Shown in pieces: positions 23,045 through 64,000 of a stretch of DNA of 64,000 nucleotides. Where the stretch lies: contig NC_086108.1 of assembly GCF_963921235.1 (NCBI RefSeq), positions 59,212,001 through 59,276,000 on the forward strand, read 5' to 3'. The first letter of the stretch is position 1, and each line of letters starts with the position of its first letter. The DNA is from Mobula hypostoma. Lineage: Eukaryota. The notes beneath the pieces were generated by a model, which saw only the letters and a list, made by a program, of their open reading frames with translations, was not told where the DNA came from and did not search any database. The translations under genes and the position numbers were made by a program.

Positions 23045-23825
23045 TGGAGTAGACCAACTACTTTTCTGCTGCAGGTAACTCTACCTCTGTACAGTGGAAG
23101 GTCTTCAAAGGAGAAACAGTGAGAGTTTGGGGCCATCATGTTCTCATAAAGCTGAAAGCCAATGACAACAAGTCCAGAGAATGTTGGATGTTGAGTGATA
23201 TCAAGAGATGGATCAAAAGAATAAAGGAAGCATATGGCAGATGTAGAGAACTGAAGATGGGGGAGAGGGAACAGGACTATAAAAAAACTATAGAGGACAC
23301 TTAAAAATGAAATTACAATGGTGAATTATCAATGGCGATCAAGGGCTAAAGAATATCAAGGCCCATTAGTGCCACTAGTACAATCTGTGGTTGGAGCCAA
23401 AAGGAGTAGGCAAAGTCCCAAATGAGAATTTGTCATTGGTATTCACAAAGAAAACACATTTTGTAATTGGAAAACTGAGTGGATGGGAAGGTGAAATTTA
23501 AGTGAGTCAACATAAGATACATTAGTGGACTTAAAGGTAGACGAGTTCCCAAGAGTCAGGTGAGATTTATCCTGAGCTGCTATGGAGGTAAGATGATTAT
23601 TGGGGTTCTAGTTTAGATTTTTATACCTTCACAAGCAAGATACAAGATGACTGGTGGACAGTGAATGTGGTTTCCCTTTTCAAGATGGGCAGCAGGGAAC
23701 AGCCTGGCATTTACAGACCTGTGACCTTAACATCAGTGGAAGGGAAGTTGTTAAAAAAACCTGGAGGACAGGATTAATGTCCACTTGAAAAGGCAGGGAC
23801 CGTTCAAAGGGAGTCAGCATTGTTT
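23045..23825 (+). mobile_element. Old CR1 ORF2 relic
   Basis: Degenerate W.TVNVVSLFKMGSREQPGIYRPVTLTSV and SQH motifs. Confidence 0.65.
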
Positions 23826-23827
23826 CC

Positions 23828-24484
23828 ATGTCCCCTGTGGCCATTCCCCTCAGCAACAAGTATACCGCATTGGATACTGTTGGGCGGGATGACTTACCTG
23901 GGACAAGCTGCAGTAGCCGGATCTCTGGCACTGAGTCTGGCTCTGCAGTGCAGAAGGGAGGGTGGAAAAAGAGGAGAGCGGTAGTGATAGGGGATTCGAT
24001 AGTTAGGGGTGCAGATAGGAGGTTCTGTGGTCGTGACAGAGAATCCAGGATGGTTTGTTGCCTCCCGGGTGCCAGGGTCAAGGATGTCTCTGATTGATTG
24101 CATGACATTCTGAAGTGGGAGGGTGATCAGCCAGATGTCGTGGTGCACATCGGTACCAATGACATAGCAAGGAAGAATGAGGAGGTCCTGGACAGTGAGT
24201 ATAGAGAGCTTGGTAGGAAGTTGAAAAGCAGGACCTCAAGGGTGGTAATCTCAGGATTGCTACCTGTGCTAGGTGCCAGTGAGGGTAGGAATAGGATGCT
24301 CTGGAGGATGAACAAGTGGCCTAGGAACTGGTGTAGGGGGCAGGGTTTCAGATTTCAGGATCATTGGGACCTCTTCTGGGGCAGGTGGGACCTGTACAAG
24401 AGAGACGGGTTACACTTGAACTACAGGGGGACCAATATCCTTTCAGGGAGGTTTGTTAGTGCTATTGGAGAGGCTTTAAACTAG
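23828..24484 (+). pseudogene. CR1 ORF1, SGNH/GDSL esterase-like domain (partial, one internal stop at 24095-24097)
   Basis: AVVIGDSIVRG, CLPGARV, VVVHIGTND, YKRDGLHLN. Confidence 0.92.
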
Positions 24485-27400
24485 ATTTGCAGGGGGATGG
24501 GAACCAGATTACCAGAGCTGACAGTGTGGCTGGGGTGAAAATAAATGATGTTAAATGTTCAAGCAAATCCGCTGATAGAAAGGTTGTGAGTGGTGGTAAA
24601 ATTCTTCTGAGGTGTATATATTTCAATGCTAGGAGTATTGCGGGGAAGGCGGATGCGTTGAGGGCGTGGATTGACATGTGGAATTATGACGTTATAGCAA
24701 TTAGTGAAACTTGGCTACAGGAGGGGCAGGACTGGCAGCTTAATATTCCAGGGTTCCGATGTTTCAGATGTGATCGAGGCAGAGGAATGAAAGGTGGGGG
24801 AGTAGCATTGCTTGTTAGGGAAAATATTACAGCAGTGCTCAGGCAGGACAGATTAGAGGGCTTGTCTACTGAGTCCTTATGGGTGGAGCTGAGAAACAGG
24901 AAAGGTATGGCCACATTAGTGGGATTGTATTACAGACCACCCAATAGTCAACAAGACTTGGAAGAGCAAATCTGCAGAGAGATAGCAGGCAACTGCAGGA
25001 AACATAAAGTTGTGGTGGTAGGGGATTTTAATTATCCATACATTGATTGGGACTCCCATACTGTTAGGGGTCTAGATGGTTTAGAGTTTGTAAAATGTGT
25101 TCAGGAAAGTTTTCTAAATCAATATACAGAGGGACCAACTAGTGGGGATGCAATATTGGATCTCCTGTTAGGAAACGAGTTAGGACAAGTGACGGAAGTC
25201 TGTGTAGGGGAGCACTTTGGTTCCAGTGATCATAACACCATTAGTTTCAATTTGATCATGGACAAGGATAGATCTGGTCCTAGAGTTGAGGTTCTGAACT
25301 GGAAGAAGGCCAAATTTGAAGAAATGAGAAAGGATCTAAAAAGCGTGGATTGGGACAGGTTGTTCTCTGGCAAAGATGTGATTGGTAGGTGGGAAGCCTT
25401 CAAAGGGGAAATTTTGAGAGTGCAGAGTTTGTATGTTCCTGTCAGGATTAAAGGCAAATTGAATAGGAATAAGGAACCTTGGTTCTCAAGGGAAATTGCA
25501 ACTCTGATAAAGAAGAAGAGGGAATTGTATGAAATGTATAGGGAACAGGGAGTAAATCAAGTGCTTGAGGAGTATAAGAAGTGCAAGAAAATACTTAAGA
25601 AAGAAATCAGGAGGGCTAAAAGAAGAACAACAGGAATTCTGCAGATGCTGGAAATTCAAGCAACACACATCAAAGTTGCTGGTGAACGCAGCAGGCCAGG
25701 CAGCATCTATAGGAAGAGGTGCAGTCGACGTTTCAGGCCGAGACCCTTCGTCCTGAAACGTCGACTGCACCTCTTCCTATAGATGCTGCCTGGCCTGCTG
25801 CGTTCACCAGCAACTTTGATGGGCTAAAAGAAGACATGAGGTTGCCTTGGCAGTCAAAGTGAAGGATAATCCAAAGAGCTTTTACAGGTATATTAAGAGC
25901 AAAAGGATTGTAAGGGATAAAATTGGTCCTCTTGAAGATCAGAGTGGTCGGCTATGTGCAGAACCAAAGGAAATAGGGGAGATCTTAAATAGGTTTTTTG
26001 CGTCTGTATTTAATAAGGAAACTGGCATGAAGTCTATGGAATTGAGGGAATCAAGTAGTGAGATCATGGAAACTGTACAGATTGAAAAGAAGGAGGTGCT
26101 TGCCGTCTTGAGGAAAATTAAAGTGGATAAATCCCCAGGGCCTGACAGAGTGTTCCCTCGGACCTTGAAGGAGACTAGTGTTGAAATTGCGGGGGCCCTG
26201 GCAGAAATACTTAAAATGTCGCTGTCTAGGGGTGAGGTGCTGGAGGACTGGAGAGTGGCTCATGTTGTTCCATTGTTTAAAAAAGGATCGAAAAGTAATC
26301 CGGGAATTTATAGGCCGGTGAGTTTAACGTTGGTAGTAGGTAAATTATTGGAGGGAGTACTAAGAGACAGAATCTACAAGCATTTGGATAGACAGGGACT
26401 TATTAGGGAGAGTCAACATGGCTTTGTGCGTGGTAGGTCATGTTTGACCAATCTATTGGAGTTTTTTGAGGAGGTTACCAGGAAAGTGGATGAAGGGAAG
26501 GCAGTGGATATTGTCTACATGGATTTCAGTAAGGCCTTTGACAAGGTCCCGCATGGGAGGTTAGTTAGGAAAATTCAGTCACTAGGTATACATGGAGAGG
26601 TGGTAAATTGGATTAGACATTGGCTCAATGGAAGAAGCCAAAGCGTGGTGGTAGAGAATTGCTTCTCTGAGTGGAGGCCTGTGACTAGTGGTGTGCCACA
26701 GGGATCAGTGCTGGGTCCATTGTTATTTGTCATCTATATCAATGATCTGGATGATAATGTGGTAAATTGGATCAGCAAATTTGCTGATGATACAAAGATT
26801 GGAGGTGTAGTAGACAGTGAGGAAAGTTTTCAGAGCCTGCAGAGGGACTTGGACCAGCTGGAAAAATGGGCTGAAAAATGGCAGATGGAGTTTAATACAG
26901 ACAAGTGTGAGGTATTGCACGTTGGAAGGACAAACCAAGGTAGAACACACAGGGTTAATGGTAAGGCACTGAGGAGTGCAGTGGAACAGAGGGATCTGGG
27001 AATACAGATACAAAATTCCCAAAAAGTGGCGTCACAAGTAGATAGGGTAGTAAAGAGAGCTTTTGGTACATTGGCCATTATTAATCAAAGTATTGAGTAT
27101 AAGAGCTGGAATGTTATGATGAGGTTGTATAAGGCATTGGTGAGGCCGAATCTGGAGTATTGTGTTCAGTTTTGGTCACCAAATTACAGGAAGGATATAA
27201 ATAAGGTTGAAAGAGTGCAGAGAAGGTTTACAAGGATGTTGCCGGGACTTGAGAAACTCAGTTACAGAGAAAGGTTGAATAGGTTAGGACTTTATTCCCT
27301 GGAGTGTAGAAGAATGAGGGGAGATTTGATAGAGGTATATAAAATTATGATGGGTATAGATAGAGTGAATGCAAGCAGGCTTTTTCCACTGAGGCAAGGG

Positions 27401-27622
27401 GAGAAAAAAACCAGAGGACATGGGTTAAGGGTGAGGGGGGAAAAGTTTAAAGGGAACATTAGGGGGGGCTTCTTCACACAGAGAGTGGTGGGAGTATGGA
27501 ATGAGCTGCCAGATGAGGTGGTAAATGCGGGTTCTTTATTAACATTTAAGAATAAATTGGGCAGATACATGGATGGGAGGTGTATGGAGGGATATGGTCC
27601 ATGTGCATGTCAGTGGGACTAG
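24475..27622 (+). pseudogene. CR1 ORF2 (APE endonuclease plus RT), interrupted only by the mini-PLE at 25627-25820
   Basis: YFNARS, ISETWL, YYRPP, GDFN, SDHN, then RT motifs PQGSVLGP and KFADD. Joining 25626 to 25835 restores the frame (IRRAKRR|HEVALAVKVK). Confidence 0.95.
25627..25820. mobile_element. Palindromic mini-Penelope element (194 bp), 14-bp TSD
   Basis: 69-bp perfect inverted arms (25669-25737 / 25752-25820) with a 14-nt loop. TSD GGGCTAAAAGAAGA at 25613-25626 and 25821-25834. Confidence 0.95.
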
Positions 27623-28416
27623 GCAGAAAATGGTTCGGCACAGCCAAGAAGGGCCAAAAGGCCTGTTTCTGTGCTGTAGTTTCCATGGTTTCTATGGTTT
27701 CTATGTTGGCACGTAACCCTATAGCCTTCCAATTTAGAAATTAAAAGCCATCTGAAAATACAAAATGAGAGTAAAGGGAAAGAATAATGAAGAATACATA
27801 TTTTTAAAATAAAATAGTACTGCATAGTTTTCCTAGTCACTATTACAAACAAAAAAAACAGTTTAACCACTTAATGCTGTGCAGAACAGAGGGATAATCT
27901 TTATTGCATTTTATTAGAACTCAGCAAAACATAATATTTTATCTGTAATTTTCAAAGAAAACAAGAAGATTCCTAAATATAAATCAGATGGTAGCACAAT
28001 TATCAAAGTAATTACTAGGTTCATCATATTTTAGAATGAACATTAATTCTTGCATTATATTTTGTTTAAAACAAAATAAATATGCAATAACTTAATACTG
28101 GATCAGATCTTTTTGGAAGAGTTTTCTAAAAGGTGCCCCTTTAGAAATTATTTTTCAGACTTCAGTTCAGAAATACTTAGAGCTGTGTGCTGGAAGTTAG
28201 GTACAGGAACAGTCTCTTCAGTGAATGAAAAGACCAATGTTAACTTAACTAATGGGACTTAACAGCTGAGGAATAAAAATAGGAATGGCAAGAAATAATT
28301 TCCAAAAAGGAAATGGGGAAAAAAGGTAAAGTGATAGCTTTTATTGCATTTTAGGTTTGTCCCATATCAACTTGTCAACTAACTAAAGGGAAGAGACTTG
28401 AGAATCTCAACTCAGT

Positions 28417-39819: not shown

Positions 39820-42800
39820 GGAGGGTATTTGTGGGCAGGAGATAGGGGACAGCAGGGAAGCTCAAGGCTTAGGTGATTGGCAGTGATAATGGACTATTTA
39901 GTAAGAAGCACTGATGGGTATTTCTGTGGCCACAAGTGAGATTCCAGGTACCTTGCCTCCCTGGAGCCAGTGATAATGATGTCTCTCAGTGAGTACATGA
40001 CATTCTTAAAGTGGAGGGTAAGCAGTTTGAGATCACAGTCTATATTGGGAGAAATAACATAGACAGGAAGACAGATGATGCCTTGAATAGTGTATATAGG
40101 AAATTAGGGAGAAAATTAAAAAGCAGAACCTCTTGCAATTGCAGAATATTCCTTCTGCCATGTGCAAGTAGGATGATTGAGGGGAAGGCTAAATCAAGTA
40201 AGTCTAAAAGCAAAAGCAGACAGGACAGCCAGAAGGTAACATAGATCAGCAGAGATCCTCACCATCCAGGCCATGTCATCTTTTGCAGCTACCAGTAGGC
40301 AACAGCTACAGAAGCCTTAAGTCCCACAACACCAGGATCCAACCATTTGGTTCTTATATCTATCTGCACAATCCTAATGACTACCTCAGAATCAGATATA
40401 ATACCACTGATGTATGTCATGAAGATTGTTGTTTTGTGACAGCAGTACTGATAAAACATAAAAATGTCTACACATTACAAAAATCTATAAATAGTGCAAA
40501 AGATGAATAATTATCTATGTTCATTGACTCATGGACCATTCAGAAATATGATGGCAGAAGGTGAAAAGCTGTTCTTAAAGCACTGAGTGTGAGACTTCAG
40601 CCTCGTATACCTCCTTCTCAATGGTAGTAACATGAAGAGGGCATGTTCCCAAGGACGATGGATGGTGCCTTCTTGAGGCACTGCCTCTTGAAAATGTCCT
40701 CAGCAGGGGAAAGTTGTGACCACTTTGCACTACAACGTACTTTGTTTCTGTATTCTAATTGTGTCTTTCTTGTATAATTTATGCTCATGTTTTCCTTGTG
40801 ATTGTTGTCTCTCTGGTGCTACATGCCTGCAGCTGTATCATTGGACCTGTAATGCTGCTGCAAGCTTATCATTGCACCTGTAGATACATGTACTTGTGCT
40901 TATGTCAATAAACTTGACTTTGACTTTAACTTTGATAACGAACACAGTGGGCCAGATGATTTGATGTGTTTTATTCTCATTCAAAGAGAATAGCAGATAA
41001 AGCAAATGAACTTAGAACTTGGATTAGTACATGGAAGTACTGTGTTATATTGTTGTCACTGCAGAAACTTGGTTGAGAGAAGGGCAGAGCTAATAGTTCA
41101 TTGTTATAGGGTACAGATTAGTTAGATATGTCAGAGAGGAAGTGCAAAGAGCTGGGGGAACTGCTTTATTGATTAAGAGAGCACCAAGAGAGCACATCTT
41201 TTTGAGGGCTCATCAGCAAGGCCATGTCGATAGAACTCAGGAATCAGAAGGGTGCAGTCATTATGATGGGCTTATACTGTAGGCCTTCCAATAAGTAGCA
41301 AGATTGAGAGGAGCAGATCTGTAGGCAGCTCATGGAGAAAAGTGAAAATAATGCAATTGTACTGGGTGATTTTAACTTCCCTAATAATGACTGTGACAAG
41401 ATGGGGCAGAATCTGTTAGGGTTTCCTGAAACAATGTGTAGAAACTCCAAGTGAGGATAAGATTTTACTAGGTCTTGTATGGGTGAATGAACCTTCTACA
41501 CGATTTAAGTCTTAATTCGGGAGTATTTTCTGAACAGTGACCATAATTCCATAAATTTTAAGATGGTTATGGACAAGTTTGATTCTTAGATGGAAGTGCA
41601 AAATTGGAGGAAGGCTAATTATAATGGAATTAGGCAAGAACTGGAGAAAGTAGATTGGTTCAAAGAATCTACAGTTATTTGAAGGTAATTCCACATCTGA
41701 CATGTGAGAGTTCAGGACCAGCATATTTATGTGAAGATGAAAGTAAGGATGACAAGAGAGATATTGTAAACTCAGTCAAAAAGGAAAAGGAAGCATGGGT
41801 AAGGCTTAGAGTGCTGATATCAGACAAAGCATTTCATGAATATAAAGGATGCTGGTTCACTCACATGGCAGATGCAAATTAATGCAGATAATACTGAAGT
41901 GATATACACTCAGTGGGCCATTTTATTAGATACCTTTTTAGTCTTCATCTGCTGTAGACTGTCCATTTCAAGGATGGACATGCGGATTCAGAGGTGCTCT
42001 TCTACACACCACTGTTGTAACAAGAGGTTATTTGAGTTAATGTGACCTTCCTGTCAGCTTGAACCAGTCTGGCCATTCTCCTCTGACCTCTCTGATGAAC
42101 AAGGTATTTTCACCCATTAATCTGCCACTTACTGGATGTGTTTTTGTTTTTTTTTGCACCATTCTCTATAATTTCTAGAGATGGTTGTGCATGAAATTTG
42201 CAAGAGATTAGCAGTTTTGGAGATACTCAAGCCACCCCATCTGGCACCAATAATCATTTCACAGTCAAAGTCACTTAGATCACATTGCTTTATCATTATG
42301 ATGTACAGTCTGAACAAACATGGATCCTTTTGACCATGACTGCATGCTTTTATGCATTGAGTTGATGCCACATGCTTGACTGATCAGATATCTGCATTAA
42401 TGAACAGGTGTACAGGCAAATCAAATAAGGCGAGTGTATTTTGGTAGAACCAATGATGAAAGGCACAGTAAAAAAAATAATGAAATTTTATAGGGATATA
42501 CTGTAAGAGAGAGATCTAGAAATTCTACTACAAGATAAGATAAGAAAGCTATAGTAGAAGTGTATGGGATCCTTGGTTTTATAAATAAAGTAAGTTAGTT
42601 ATGCTCACATTGATTAGTTGTCAAGAGTACTGCTTTTAATTCTTGGGACTACACTTTAGGGAGGATGCTGAGAAGATTTACTACAATTATGCCAGACGGG
42701 AGTGATTCACTTTAATGGAAAGAATGGCAAAAGGAACTTCTCCTTACAGCAGAGAAGATTAGAAAGGGAGTACTCAAGATCATGAATGTTGATGTAAATA

Positions 42801-56513: not shown

Positions 56514-57615
56514 AACTGAAGGAAGAGTGAGTAAGGGATTTGAAAGTTGGAGGGGGAGGGGGAGATCCAAAATGATAGGAGAAGACAGGAGGGGGAGGGA
56601 TGGAGCCAAGAGCTGGACAGGTGATAGGCAAAAGGGATACGAGAGGATCATGGGACAGGAGGTCCGGGAAGAAAGACAAGGAGGGGGGCAGGGACCCAGA
56701 GGATGGGCAAGAGGTATATTCAGAGGGACAGAGGGAGAAAAAGGAGAGTGAGAGAAAGAATGTGTGCATAAAAATAAGTAACAGATGGGGTACGAGGGGG
56801 AGGTGGGGCATTAGCGGAAGTTAGAGAAGTCGATGTTCATGCCATCAGGTTGGAGGCTACCCAGACGGAATATAAGATGTGTTTCGAGTGTGGCTTCATC
56901 TTTACAGTAGAGGAGGCCGTGGATAAACATGTCAGAATGGGAATGGGATGTGGAATTAAAATGTGTGGCCACTGGGAGATCCTGCTTTCTCTGGCGGACA
57001 GAGCGTAGATGTTCAGCAAAACGGACTCCCAGTCTGTGTCAGGTCTCGCCAATATATAAAAGGCCACATCGGGAGCACCGGACACAGTATATCACCCCAG
57101 CCGACTCACAGGTGAAGTGTTGCCTCACCTGGAAGGATTGTTTGGGGCCCTGAATGGTGGTAAGGGAGGAAGTGTAAGGGCATGTGTAGCACTTGTTCCG
57201 CTTACATGGATAAGTGCCAGGAGGGAGATCAGTGTGGAGGGATGGGGGGGGGACGAATGGACAAGGGAGTTGCGTAGGGAGCGATCCCTGCGGAATGCGG
57301 GGGGGGGAGGGAAAGATGTGCTTAGTGGTGGGATCCCGTTGGAGGTGGCGGAAGTTACGGAGAATAATATGTTGGACCTGGAGGCTGGTGGGGTGGTAGG
57401 TGAGGACCAGGGGAACCCTATTCCTAGTGGGGTGGCGGGAGGATGGAATGAGAGCAGATGTACGTGAAATGGGGGAGATGCGTTTAAGAGCAGAGTTGAT
57501 AGTGGGGGAAGGGAAGTCCCTTTCTTTAAACAAGGAAGACATCTCCCTCATCCTAGAATGAAAAGCCTCATCCTGAGAGCAGATGCGGCGGAGACAGAGG
57601 AATTGCGAGAAGGGA

Positions 57616-59521
57616 CTGCCGACGGGACATCAACCGTCTCGACTTCACCGCACCTTGTCCCCATTCCAACCTCACTCCTTCGGAACGCTCTGCTCTCCAC
57701 TCCCTCCGCACTAATCCTAACCTTATTATTAAACCCGTCGATAAGGGGGGTGCTGTTGTAGTCTGGCGTACTGACCTCTACCTTGCCGAGGCACAGCGAC
57801 AACTCGCGGATACCTCCTCTTATTTACCCCTCGATCGTGACCCCACTAAGGAGCACCAGGCCATTGTCTCCCACACCATCACCGACTTTATCCGCTCAGG
57901 GGATCTCCCATCCACTGCTACCAACCTTATAGTTCCCACACCCCGCACTTCCCGTTTCTACCTCCTACCCAAGATCCACAAATCTGTCTGTCCTGGCCGA
58001 CCTATTGTCTCACCTTGCTCCTGCCCCACCGAACTCATTTCTGCATACCTCAACACGGTTTTATCACCCCTTGTTCAATCCCTTCCAACCTATGTTTGTG
58101 ACACTTCTCACGCTCTTAAACTTTTCGATGATTTTAAGTTCCCTGGCCCCCACCGCTTTATTTTCACCATGGGTGTCCAGTCCTTATATACTTCCATCCC
58201 CCATCAGGAAAGTCTCAAAGCTCTACGCTTCTTTTTGGATTCCAGACCTAATCAGTTCCCCTCTACCACCACTCTGCTCCGTCTAGCAGAATTAGTCCTT
58301 ATTCTTAATAATTTCTCCTTTGGCTCCTCCCACTTCCTCCAAACTAAAGGTGTAGCTATGGGCACCCGTATGGGTGCTAGCTATGCCTGCCTTTTTGTTG
58401 GGTTTGTGGAACAATCTATGTTCCGTGCCTATTCTGGTATCTGTCCCCCACTTTTCCTTCGCTACATCGACGACTGCATTGGCGCTGCTTCCTGCGCGCA
58501 TGCAGAACTCGTTGACTTTATTAACTTTGCCTCCAACTTTCACCCTGCCCTCAAGTTTACCTGGTCCATTTCCGACACCTCCCTCCCCTTTCTAGATCTT
58601 TCTGTCTCTGTCTCTGGAGACAGCTTATCCACTGATGTCTACTATAAGCCTATTGACGCTCACAGCTATCTGGACTATTCCTCTGTCTCTTGCAAAAACG
58701 CCATCCCCTTCTCGCAATTCCTCCGTCTCCGCCGCATCTGCTCTCAGGATGAGGCTTTTCATTCTAGGACGAGGGAGATGTCTTCCTTTTTTAAAGAAAG
58801 GGGCTTCCCTTCCTCCACTATCAACTCTGCTCTTAAACGCATCTCCCCCATTTCACGTACATCTGCTCTCACTCCATCCTCCCGCCGCCCCACTAGGAAT
58901 AGGGTTCCCTGGTCCTCACCTACCACCCCACCAGCCTCCGGGTCCAACATATTATTCTCCGTAACTTCCGCCACCTCCAACGGGATCCCACCACTAAGCA
59001 CATCTTTCCCTCCCCCCCTCTCTCAGCATTCCGCAGGGATCGCTCCCTACGCAACTCCCTTGTCCATTCGTCCCCCCCCATCCCTCCCCACTGATCTCCC
59101 TCCTGGCACTTATCCATGTAAGCGGAACAAGTGCTACACATGCCCTTACACTTCCTCCCTTACCACCATTCAGGGCCCCAAACAATCCTTCCAGGTGAGG
59201 CAACACTTCACCTGTGAGTCGGCTGGGGTGATATACTGCGTCCGGTGCTCCCGATGTGGCCTTTTATATATTGGCGAGACCCGACGCAGACTGGGAGACC
59301 GCTTTGCTGAACATCTACGCTCTGTCCGCCAGAGAAAGCAGGATCACCCAGTAGCCACACATTTTAATTCCACATCCCATTCCCATTCTGACATGTCTAT
59401 CCACGGCCTCCTCTACTGTAAAGATGAAGCCACACTCAGGTTGGAGGAACAACACCTTATATTCCATCTGGGTAGCCTCCAACCTGATGGCATGAACATC
59501 GACTTCTCTAACTTCCGCTAA
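57616..59521 (+). pseudogene. PLE ORF: reverse transcriptase, Cys linker and GIY-YIG endonuclease, 5'-truncated with small indels
   Basis: IIKP.DKGG, FYLLPKIHK..PGRPIVS, FTMGVQSLYTSIPH, QTKGVAMGT, FLRYIDDC, PFLDL, CKRNKCYTC, VIYCVRCSRCGLLYIGET. Confidence 0.95.
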
Positions 59522-59848: not shown

Positions 59849-60291
59849 GCACCTCTTCCTACAGATGCTGCCTGGCCTGCTGCGTTCACCAGCAACTTTG
59901 ATAAATTTGATGGATGTATTTTTTGTAAGAGTAAAAGGTGGTTAATTTAATCTTACAGTGTCCCTTGACATTGCAAGATCAAATCAATATGATCCAACAT
60001 CATAGCTTATTTATCCAGGACGGAACTGCTGTATCCTGTAGCACAGTATCCTGCATTTTCTCAGGATTTTGTCTTCACTGTTCTATCCATTTCATATGTT
60101 GATCGATCCTCGTGTGACGAAGAAATTCTTGACAATCAATCCTACCTTTCCAGTGCCTTGCTTGAACCTGCATCACTTGGTATTTGGCTTGAAATCATGC
60201 TGTGGATCATTTGTAATTATGTATCTTAGTTTTCAAATATCTGGCATCTCCAAGCCTCCCAGACGTCTACATCTGCGCCAAGTGCATCGAG

Positions 60292-61110
60292 ATGCAGCTT
60301 CTAAGGGACCGCGTTACGGAACTGGAGCTGCAGCTTGATGACCTTCATCTGGTCAGGGAGAGTGAGGAGGTGATAGAGAGGACGCCGGGGCCACGGGAGG
60401 CAGACAAGTGGGTCACGGTTAGGAGGGGGAAGGGGAAAAGTCAGGTGATGGGGAGTACCCCGGTGGCTGTGCCCCTTAACAACAGGTACTCCTGTTTGAG
60501 TACTGTTGGCAGGGCCAGCTTACCCGGGGGAAGCGACAGTGGCCGTGCCTCCGGCACAGAGTCTGGCCCTGTAGCTCAGAAGGGTAGGGCAAGGAAGAGG
60601 AGGGCAGTTGTGATAGGGGACTCGATAGTAAGGGGGTCAGATAGGCGATTTTGTGGATGCAGTCCAGAGACCCGGATGGTAGTTTGCCTCCCTGGTGCCA
60701 GGGTCAGGGATATTTCTGATCGTGTCCAAGATATCCTGAAGTGGGAGGGTGAGGAGCCAGAGGTCGTGGTACATATAGGTACCAATGACATAGGTAGGAA
60801 AAGAGATGAGGTCCTGAAAGGAGAATATAGGGAGCTAGGAAGAGAGTTGAGAAAAAGGACCGCAAAGGTAGTAATCTCGGGATTACTGCCTGTGCCAAGC
60901 AACAGTGAGAGTAGGAATGCGATGAGGTGGAGGACAAATGCGTGGCTGAGGGATTGGAGCAGGGGGCAGGGATTCAAGTTTTTGGATCATTGGGACCTCT
61001 TTTGGCGCAGGCGTGACCTGTACAAAAAGGACGGGTTACACTTGAATCCTAGGGGGACCAATATCCTGGCAGGGAGATTAGCGGGAGCTACTGAGGTGAC
61101 TTTAAACTAG
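60292..61110 (+). CDS. CR1 ORF1p (coiled coil plus SGNH esterase-like domain), N-terminally truncated
   Basis: LLRDRVTELELQLDDL, AVVIGDSIVRG, VVVHIGTNDI, YKKDGLHLN. Confidence 0.88.
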   Translation: MQLLRDRVTELELQLDDLHLVRESEEVIERTPGPREADKWVTVRRGKGKSQVMGSTPVAVPLNNRYSCLSTVGRASLPGGSDSGRASGTESGPVAQKGRARKRRAVVIGDSIVRGSDRRFCGCSPETRMVVCLPGARVRDISDRVQDILKWEGEEPEVVVHIGTNDIGRKRDEVLKGEYRELGRELRKRTAKVVISGLLPVPSNSESRNAMRWRTNAWLRDWSRGQGFKFLDHWDLFWRRRDLYKKDGLHLNPRGTNILAGRLAGATEVTLN

Positions 61111-64000
61111 AATGGTTGGGGGGTGGGAATCAAATTAAAGAGGCTAGGCGTGAGGAGGTTAGTTCACAACAGAGGGATGGGAACCAGTGCAGAGAGACAG
61201 AGGGGTGTAAAGTGAGGGTAGAAGCAAAAAGTACAAAGGAGAAAAGTAAAAGTGGCAGGCCGACAAATCCAGGGCAAGCAATAAAAAGGGCCACTTTTCA
61301 ACATAATTGTATAAGGGCTAAGAGAGTTGTAAAAGAGCGCCTGAAGGCTTTATGTGTCAATGCAAGGAGCATTCGTAATAAGGTGGATGAATTGAAAGTG
61401 CAGATTGTTATTAATGATTATGATATAGTTGGGATCACAGAGACATGGCTCCAGGGTGATGAGGGATGGGAGCTCAACGTTCAGGGATATTCAATATTCA
61501 GGAGGGATAGACATGAAGGAAGGGGAGGTGGGGTGGCGTTGCTGGTTAAAGAAGAGATTAACGCAATAGAAAGGAAGGACATAAGCCGGGAAGGTGTGGA
61601 ATCGATATGGGCAGAGCTGCGTAACACCAAGGGGCAGAAGACGCTGGTGGGAGTTGTGTACAGGCCACCTAACAGTAGTAGTGAGGTCGGAGATGGTATT
61701 AAACAGGAAATTAGAAATGTGTGCAATAAAGGAACAGCAGTTATAATGGGTGACTTCAATCTACATGTAGACTGGGTGAACCAAATTGGTAAAGGTGCTG
61801 AGGAAGAGGATTTCTTGGAATGTATGCGGGATGGCTTTTTGAACCAACATGTCGAGGAACCAACTAGAGAGCAGGCTATTCTGGACTGGGTTTTGAGCAA
61901 TGGGGAAGGGTTAATTAGCGATCTTGTCCTGAGAGGCCCCTTGGGTAAGAGTAACCATAATATGGTGGAATTCTTCATTAAGATGGAGAGTGACATAGTT
62001 AATTCAGAAACAAAGGTTCTGAACTTAAAGAGGGGTAACTTTGAAGGTATGAGACGTGAATTAGCTAAGATAGACTGGCAAATGACACTTAAAGGATTGA
62101 CGGTGGATATGCAATGGCAAGCATTTAAAGGTTGCATGGATGAACTACAACAATTGTTCATCCCAGTTTGGCAAAAGAATAAATCAAGGAAGGTAGTGCA
62201 CCCGTGGCTGACAAGAGAAATTAGGGATAGTATTAATTCCAAAGAAGAAGCATACAAATTAGCCAGAGAAAGTGGCTCACCTGAGGACTGGGAGAAATTC
62301 AGAGTTCAGCAGAGGAGGACAAAGGGCTTAATTAGGAAGGGGAAAAAAGATTATGAGAGAAAACTGGCAGGGAACATAAAAACGGACTGTAAAAGCTTTT
62401 ATAGATATGTAAAAAGGAAAAGACTGGTAAAGACAAATGTAGGTCCCCTGCAGACAGAAACAGGTGAATTGATTATGGGGAGCAAGGACATGGCAGACCA
62501 ATTGAATAATTACTTTGGTTCTGTCTTCACTAAGGAGGACATAAATAATCTTCCAGAAATAGTAAGGGACAGAGGGTCCAGTGAGATGGAGGAACTGAGC
62601 GAAATACATGTTAGTAGGGAAGTGGTGTTAGGTAAATTGAAGGGATTGAAGGCAGATAAATCCCTAGGGCAAGATGGTCTGCATCCTAGAGTGCTTAAAG
62701 AAGTAGCCCAAGAAATAGTGGATGCATTAGTGATAATTTTTCAAAACTCGTTAGATTCTGGACTAGTTCCTGAGGATTGGAGGGTGGCTAATGTAACCCC
62801 ACTTTTTAAAAAAGGAGGGAGAGAGAAACCGGGGAATTATAGACCGGTTAGCCTAACGTCGGTGGTGGGGAAACTGCTGGAGTCAGTTATCAAGGATGTG
62901 ATAACAGCACATTTGGAAAGCGGTGAAATCATCGGACAAAGTCAGCATGGATTTGTGAAAGGAAAATCATGTCTGACGAATCTCATAGAATTTTTTGAGG
63001 ATGTAACTAGTAGAGTGGATAGGGGAGAACCAGTGGATGTGGTATATTTGGATTTTCAAAAGGCTTTTGACAAGGTCCCACACAGGAGATTAGTGTGCAA
63101 ACTTAAAGCACTCGGTATTGGGGGTAAGGTATTGGTGTGGGTGGAGAATTGGTTAGCAGACAGGAAGCAAAGTATGGGAATAAACGGGACCTTTTCAGAA
63201 TGGCAGGCGGTGACTAGTGGGGTACCGCAAGGCTCAGTGCTGGGACCCCAGTTGTTTACAATATATATTAATGACTTGGATGAGGGAATTAAATGCAGCA
63301 TCTCCAAGTTTGCGGATGACACGAAGCTGGGTGGCAGTGTTAGCAGTGAGGAGGATGCTAAGAGGATGCAGGGTGACTTGGATAGGTTGGGTGAGTGGGC
63401 AAATTCATGGCAGATGCAATTTAATGTGGATAAATGTGAAGTTATCCACTTTGGTGGCAAAAATAGGAAAACAGATTATTATCTGAATGGTGGCCGATTA
63501 GGAAAAGGGGAGGTGCAACGAGACCTGGGTGTCATTATACACCAGTCATTGAAAGTGGGCATGCAGGTACAGCAGGCGGTGAAAAAGGCGAATGGTATGC
63601 TGGCATTTATAGCGAGAGGATTCGAGTACAGGAGCAGGGACGTACTACTGCAGTTGTACAAGGCCTTGGTGAGACCACACCTGGAGTATTGTGTGCAGTT
63701 TTGGTCCCCTAATCTGAGGAAAGACATCTTTGCCATAGAGGGAGTACAAAGAAGGTTCACCAGATTGATTCCTGGGATGGCAGGACTTTCATATGAAGAA
63801 AGACTGGATGAATTGGGCTTGTACTCGTTGGAATTTAGAAGATTGAGGGGGGATCTGATTGAAACGTATAATATCCTAAAGGGATTGGACAGGCTAGATG
63901 CAGGAAGATTGTTCCCGATGTTGGGGAAGTCCAGAACGAGGGGTCACAGTTTGAGGATAGAGGGGAAGCCTTTTAGGACCGAGATTAGGAAAAACTTCTT
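61101..64000 (+). CDS. CR1 ORF2p (APE endonuclease plus RT), open for about 966 codons to the window end, no initiator AUG
   Basis: The frame from 61101 reads FKLEWLGGGNQ..LCVNARSI..GITETWL..YRPPN..GDFN. KFADD (63306) and RLFPM (63906) fall in the same frame. It is absent from the ORF track, which fits no stop before the edge. Confidence 0.9.

Follow-up and report, generated by a model that had tools for sequence, protein, structure and literature searches.

Results

An ORF1–ORF2 junction without a usable AUG

The window, that is, the whole stretch of 64,000 nucleotides that was analysed, carries at ~23.8–27.7 kb a 5′-truncated CR1 LINE, designated family A. The best match of its ORF1 is a Mobula hypostoma protein (91%), and the homologues mark the sequence as cartilaginous-fish DNA. 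The element contains the following features.

23822..24484, + strand: remnant of ORF1, a 5′-truncated SGNH esterase (PF13472, E 9e-11; translation)
24460..24624, + strand: overlap in the −1 frame and AUG-free linker up to the endonuclease
24475..24481, + strand: slippery heptamer U_UUA_AAC in the phase of ORF1 (sequence; in-phase rarity)
24482..24484, + strand: ORF1 stop codon TAG, abutting the heptamer
24492..24501, + strand: G-run GGGGG-AT-GGG, a candidate linear stimulator, starting 10 nt after the heptamer
24601..25260, + strand: APE-type endonuclease of ORF2 (PF03372), with NARS at 24625 and the first ATG at 24676
25627..25834, no strand: 208-bp insertion into ORF2, a later event (palindromic insert together with a single copy of the 14-bp target duplication)
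25835..27622, + strand: rest of ORF2 with the reverse transcriptase (PF00078, E 7e-35)
27679..27705, + strand: 3′ terminal microsatellite, three copies of a 9-bp unit

A 3′ end made of short tandem repeats, and not of poly(A), is typical of CR1. ORF2 has an APE endonuclease followed by a reverse transcriptase (matches to PF03372, PF14529 and PF00078), the latter 46–56% identical to stork models in pairwise comparison. The site is the ORF1–ORF2 junction of a canonical vertebrate CR1 LINE. The copy itself is dead: a premature TGA interrupts ORF1 at 24095–24097, and ORF2 was later split by the insertion, its two parts being in register once 208 is subtracted.

The preliminary description of this DNA had reported that ORF1 ends in GCT TTA AAC TAG, with TTTAAAC at 24475–24481, and we confirmed both this ending and the X XXY YYZ phase of the heptamer (GC-T TTA AAC). 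The −1 frame is, as had been proposed, the ORF2 frame, open from 24460 and reading FKLDLQGDG into the endonuclease. The G-rich run noted after the junction lies at 24492–24496, and a near-cognate TTG is found in the linker at 24487. It was also correct that the first in-frame AUG, at 24676, comes only after the endonuclease motif, NARS being encoded at codon 50 and the AUG at codon 67. A start at this AUG would cost the endonuclease profile positions 2–30, as PF03372 is covered over positions 2–225 with the linker and 31–225 from the first ATG. A PDB sequence search with the ORF2 start gave 0 matches.

A related junction in a second family

That a second family would carry the same heptamer and the same −1 offset held true as well. 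This element, family C, begins at about 60.2 kb and continues beyond the window.

60217..61110, + strand: family C ORF1 (esterase), ending ACT TTA AAC TAG
61095..64000, + strand: ORF2 of family C, read in the −1 frame and cut off by the end of the window, with its first ATG (61746) far inside the endonuclease
61101..61123, + strand: family C heptamer, stop and G6 run (TTTAAAC TAG at 61101–61110; G6 at 61118–61123)

Its ORF1 is again an SGNH esterase (PF13472), and its G6 run also starts 10 nt after the heptamer. The −1-frame peptide at the junction is FKLEWLGGG. NARS is found at 61359 (codon 86) and the first ATG at codon 215, so that starting there would remove most of the Pfam endonuclease domain. 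Further into the linker, positions 61174–61187 match the G-rich motif of family A (24494–24507) exactly over 14 nt, perhaps the trace of an old internal duplication.

Across five coding stretches of both elements, with 2,324 in-frame positions in all, a canonical heptamer is present at only 3, and two of these three are the junctions. In the elements, TTA accounts for 16% of the Leu codons and AAC for 29% of the Asn codons. Moreover, the linkers are stop-free over 47 codons in A and 83 in C, as are 1.9% and 0.3%, respectively, of shuffled sequences.

The preliminary description had stated that the two linkers differ in length and sequence, and had taken the match at the junction as a sign of constraint at the nucleotide level. 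The difference in length is real; that in sequence does not extend to the start of the linkers, where 9 of the first 15 residues match. The argument from constraint did not survive the comparison, since ORF1 is close between the two families and contains six exact runs of 13–18 nt, all longer than the 12-nt match at the junction; we therefore rejected the A–C identity as proof of nucleotide constraint. In this pair the junction is no more conserved than ORF1 codons, an outcome that had been named beforehand as speaking against the proposal. Where A and C encode the same residue, the codon too is the same at 77 of 110 positions in ORF1; the figures are 42/89 for the endonuclease and 91/204 for the reverse transcriptase. 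At the amino-acid level, A and C share 71% identity in the esterase and 44% in the endonuclease; stork endonucleases are 37–43% identical to A or C, and tetrapod esterases 31–43%. Because the esterases are 71% alike while the endonucleases are about as distant from each other as from those of the stork, two old ORF2 lineages most likely swapped ORF1 together with the junction, as judged from sequence identity. As a consequence, A and C must be counted as one witness and not as independent ones. The stretches that are closer than ORF2 and point to exchange of an ORF1 module are 23981–24520 and 60607–61150. An old, decayed copy of an esterase-bearing CR1 is also present at 39948–41568, where the end of ORF1 and the junction have been replaced by other sequence.

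Sequence downstream of the junctions

No stable or shared hairpin was found downstream of the A and C junctions (fold z-scores of −0.8 to +1.3 against shuffles), nor a shared pseudoknot, the candidates being matched by 290/300 and 172/300 shuffles. In neither A nor C was a structured stimulator found 5–9 nt downstream of the heptamer, and an Rfam search of the window gave 0 matches. A two-tier G-quadruplex appeared in the predicted fold of C only, not in that of A. The G4Hunter scores were 1.48 (C) and 1.08 (A), and 12% of 145 element blocks reach 1.2; runs of five G start in ~0.9% of 5-nt windows. In the arterivirus PRRSV, according to part of PMC5009743, a linear CCCANCUCC motif located 11 nt 3′ of the shift site binds a protein complex instead of forming a structure; no natural case of frameshift stimulation by a quadruplex is given as known in 2016 in the same part of that source. 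The likeliest stimulators would be slow termination at the adjacent stop and the linear G-run 10 nt downstream, this being the least certain step of the mechanism considered below.

ORF1 endings in distant homologues

We then examined ORF1 ends in the best 150 representatives at 50% identity, 106 of which reach the end of the esterase, the other 44 being set aside. LN, GN or KN ends 74 of these 106 proteins (63 LN, 10 GN, 1 KN; 32 other), with a small bias towards LN since the search profile was built from LN-type enders. Inside the proteins, these dipeptides occur at 0.36, 0.26 and 0.19% of positions, respectively. They are the dipeptides encoded by U_UUA_AAC, G_GGA_AAC and A_AAA_AAC, which are three of the four heptamers among the shiftiest for mammalian ribosomes (PMC5009743, in part). 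The heptamer DNA is known from the window and partly from two sequencing runs, and that of the other homologues is deduced from the amino acids. The tail that follows DxxH varies from 25 to 39 residues among the LN enders, and the LN end is nonetheless kept.

The residue upstream of the dipeptide was analysed after pooling with other homologues and removal of redundancy at 70%, which left 77 rows (39 LN, 9 GN, 1 KN). Before LN, a codon ending in U is needed, and E, K, Q, M or W is found there in 0 of the 39 non-redundant proteins and in 1 of 105 before redundancy removal, compared with a background of 42/234 at positions −4 to −9. Before GN, where a codon ending in G is needed, the residue is Q in eight of nine proteins and S in the ninth. 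We consider this rule as support and not as decisive, because position −6 also avoids E, K, Q, M and W (2/39).

In a tree of 75 rows, the named proteins of sharks, rays and amniotes fall in a 33-row clade, 30 members of which end in LN. Among the LN enders with names are those of two turtles (Macrochelys and Chrysemys), the tortoise Gopherus, the lizard Zootoca and the swallow Hirundo. A 16-row clade (support 99/97) mixes nine GN, one KN and one LN ending with five others, and its GN/KN proteins may belong to Penelope-like elements. One whole clade of ten rows (P0163, P0173, P0177, P0183, P0188, P0193, P0200, P0204, P0207 and P0209) lacks LN, GN and KN endings; it is well supported, with variable tails and no terminal Asn, and may use a third way to reach ORF2. 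Two CR1 proteins of the shark and ray type, P0017 and P0258, are filed under Pseudomonas aeruginosa and Aeromonas cavernicola on contigs of 4.2 and 0.7 kb, and are likely contamination of bacterial assemblies. P0231, in which esterase, endonuclease and reverse transcriptase share one frame, belongs to a single-member cluster, and we did not take it as a natural fused lineage for this reason.

Five database proteins show the −1 frame, the two frames having been joined by mutation or by gene modelling. Their peptides are FKLDLKGEG and FKLDSKGEG in stork, FKLNLQGAG in Hypanus, and FKLDRLGGG and YLKLVGQGG in unnamed entries, to be compared with the FKLDLQGDG of family A; past these shared residues the linkers vary in length. 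In roughly a dozen ORF2 models from closer relatives, an initial Met lies 12–96 residues ahead of the endonuclease motif; its position is not constant, and part of these starts may be non-ATG calls. In view of this linker Met, some families could therefore reinitiate.

Altogether, the junction signal is real and ancient, and it appears to be retained in relatives that range from sharks to turtles, lizards and birds. The earlier conclusion of a conserved −1 frameshift signal thus gains support from the distant homologues and loses the A–C argument on which it had been built.

Relatives with a TGA-C layout

A metagenome search gave 78 loci (L001–L078) with an ORF1 ~30% identical, 41 of them scoreable, that is, with both an ORF1 end and an endonuclease start. 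The endonuclease is in the ORF1 frame in 31 of these 41, with exactly one stop in between in 26. This stop is TGA-C at 19 of the 26 single-stop loci, for a background of 7.9% of stop tetramers in the same loci. No heptamer precedes the stop in any of 65 metagenome loci. UGA-C is a leaky stop context. In L003 and L025, a single TGA interrupts ~900 codons. The single-TGA LINEs with an esterase ORF1 mostly read TGA-CTA or TGA-CCA, a candidate readthrough signal. The TGA-C loci are few witnesses, because they form only 6 clusters at 75% identity (13 at 85%). From their layout, relatives without the heptamer would thus mostly use readthrough, another route to a fusion. Kajikawa and colleagues reportedly proposed in 2012 that ORF2 of the zebrafish element ZfL2-1 is made by suppression of the ORF1 stop. 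This element of the L2 clade has an esterase ORF1 and would rely on readthrough, not on frameshifting; it would match the TGA-C relatives, the fusion being the shared outcome.

Sequence reads and other collections

Two raw read runs (X21 and X22) gave 2 and 0 reads. Two contig runs (X1 and X20), the first of which may come from the organism of the window itself, vary at 24469, 24474, 24509 and 24511, and show no difference within 24475–24508 among the 40 of 182 differences listed; we did not count this as evidence because a gap of 87 nt occurs elsewhere. At 24475 and 24508, 174 and 136 contigs, respectively, have loose ends, which is no more than suggestive. DNA of vertebrate relatives was not found in the first metagenome scan or among viral contigs, plasmids and phages. 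Four pattern matches in viral contigs were dropped, as they have neither an esterase nor an ORF2 reading. Prokaryote genomes gave 11 distant SGNH matches, none with an endonuclease.

Discussion

How is ORF2 of these elements translated? The heptamer phase, the stop, the −1 offset and the absence, in A and C, of an AUG that could be used, together with the protein-level footprint in the homologues, are all seen directly, and we propose that the junction probably works as a programmed −1 ribosomal frameshift giving an ORF1–ORF2 fusion. According to this scenario, ribosomes reaching the end of ORF1 would have UUA paired with tRNA-Leu and AAC with tRNA-Asn. Most of them would terminate at UAG and release the esterase ORF1p, and a minority would slip back by one base onto UUU AAA and continue on CUA GAU UUG CAG. 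The product would be an ORF1–ORF2 fusion (..A-L-N-L-D-L-Q-G..), made at a low ratio similar to that of Gag-Pol. The stimulator would be neither a stable hairpin nor a pseudoknot, and the G-run might be bound by a protein.

Termination followed by reinitiation is the alternative that deserves most attention, although we regard it as unlikely. Ribosomes would stop at UAG and restart ORF2 at the near-cognate TTG at 24487, at a GTG, or without a fixed start, yielding a separate ORF2 protein. Such a mechanism has been described for SART1 and proposed for LINE-1 (PMC5972666, in part), both linkers contain near-cognate codons, and a linker Met is present in some relatives. However, the TTG occupies codon 4 in A but codon 5 in C, in different contexts, and the Met positions of the relatives scatter from 12 to 96. 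Reinitiation also leaves unexplained why ORF1 ends in LN, GN or KN with matching upstream residues, and why no stop interrupts the −1 frame as far back as the heptamer. It is still less probable that no recoding takes place, the terminal Leu-Asn being a constraint of the esterase fold and the A–C match an inheritance of the recent ORF1 swap. The swap is indeed real or nearly so, and Asn also ends several relatives of the TGA type; yet the position before the last can be Leu or Gly, the tail varies in length, the codons used (TTA and AAC) are rare ones, stork and ray have the −1 peptide FKL..G.G in common, and ORF2 of A and C would still be left without a start. We give very little credit to the idea that the frames are joined in the RNA, by splicing or by polymerase slippage on TTTAAA, or that ORF2 has a shorter transcript of its own. 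One RNA-like contig run lists no indel at the heptamer, which says little against this idea since contigs drop rare variants. Against it, the runs (T3 and A3) are short; a separate, shorter transcript does not remove the need for a start codon upstream of the endonuclease; and the in-phase formula of the heptamer is a signature of tRNA re-pairing.

A programmed frameshift in CR1 would not be a new kind of recoding, which is already known, with precedents in other non-LTR groups and in Penelope-like elements. A review legend (PMC5911963) states that the APE-type non-LTR elements TRE5-A and TRE3-A of Dictyostelium require a −1 frameshift for ORF2. They belong to another lineage and host than CR1, and this legend names no heptamer, stimulator or esterase. 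Viral sites of the coronavirus type have the same U_UUA_AAC heptamer as the CR1 junction, whereas the CR1 site has its stop immediately after the heptamer, is followed by a G-rich motif and is not known to involve a trans-acting factor. As for CR1 itself, the canonical vertebrate elements in the main texts of PMC4120745 (type IVB, subgroup CR1_7) and PMC13343379 (Canonical-CR1) have an esterase ORF1, an ORF2 with APE and reverse transcriptase and a short tandem 3′ end, as here; the ORF1 homologues in birds, turtles, lizards and sharks add to the likeness. The word "frameshift" is absent from these two main texts, which do not address ORF2 translation, and from the paper on the esterase structure (PMC3905857). 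"CR1" is absent from PMC5972666 and from the first 300,000 characters of PMC5009743, and PMC4255032 and PMC5006619 hold no relevant passage. Full-text searches gave no proposal of a CR1 frameshift; older work, supplements and Repbase notes may mention the overlap. Four points come out of the present analysis: the probable exchange of ORF1, the footprint of LN, GN and KN endings, the extension of the signal into amniotes, and readthrough as its counterpart.

If the −1 frameshift is true, the CR1 enzyme carries the esterase ORF1 as an N-terminal fusion, and the ORF1:ORF2 ratio is set by frameshifting, as in retroviruses. ORF2 annotations that start at an internal Met would then need correction, and assays of CR1 retrotransposition should keep the junction whole, the candidate signal being ~30 nt long. 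A more general scheme is conceivable, and we advance it only tentatively, as it is more doubtful than the frameshift itself: esterase-bearing retroelements would make ORF2 only as a fusion to ORF1, lineages would switch among the three heptamers and UGA-C readthrough, and the CR1 signal would be a structure-free one (heptamer, stop and G-run at +11) with a quadruplex or a protein that binds G as its stimulator. This scheme would imply a frameshift element of an uncommon type, present from shark to bird in a highly abundant vertebrate repeat; CR1-group elements make up 22–34% of shark and ray genomes, as stated in part of PMC13343379.

Penelope-like elements provide the other precedent. In those with two ORFs, ORF1 may be set apart by a frameshift with a pseudoknot (PMC8557442, legend of Fig. 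1), and Neptune-like members carry esterases (PMC5408684, in part). They differ from CR1 in reverse transcriptase class and endonuclease, and a pseudoknot is drawn in that legend whereas none was found here. The window itself contains a Penelope-like ORF at 57557–59521, with a weak C-terminal match to GIY-YIG (E 3e-4), preceded by an inverted partial copy of the same ORF near 57.0–57.6 kb. The insert at 25627–25834, a near-perfect palindrome with 74-nt arms (99% complementary) and a 6-nt loop, resembles, by eye, the terminus of the Penelope-like element at about 59.8 kb.
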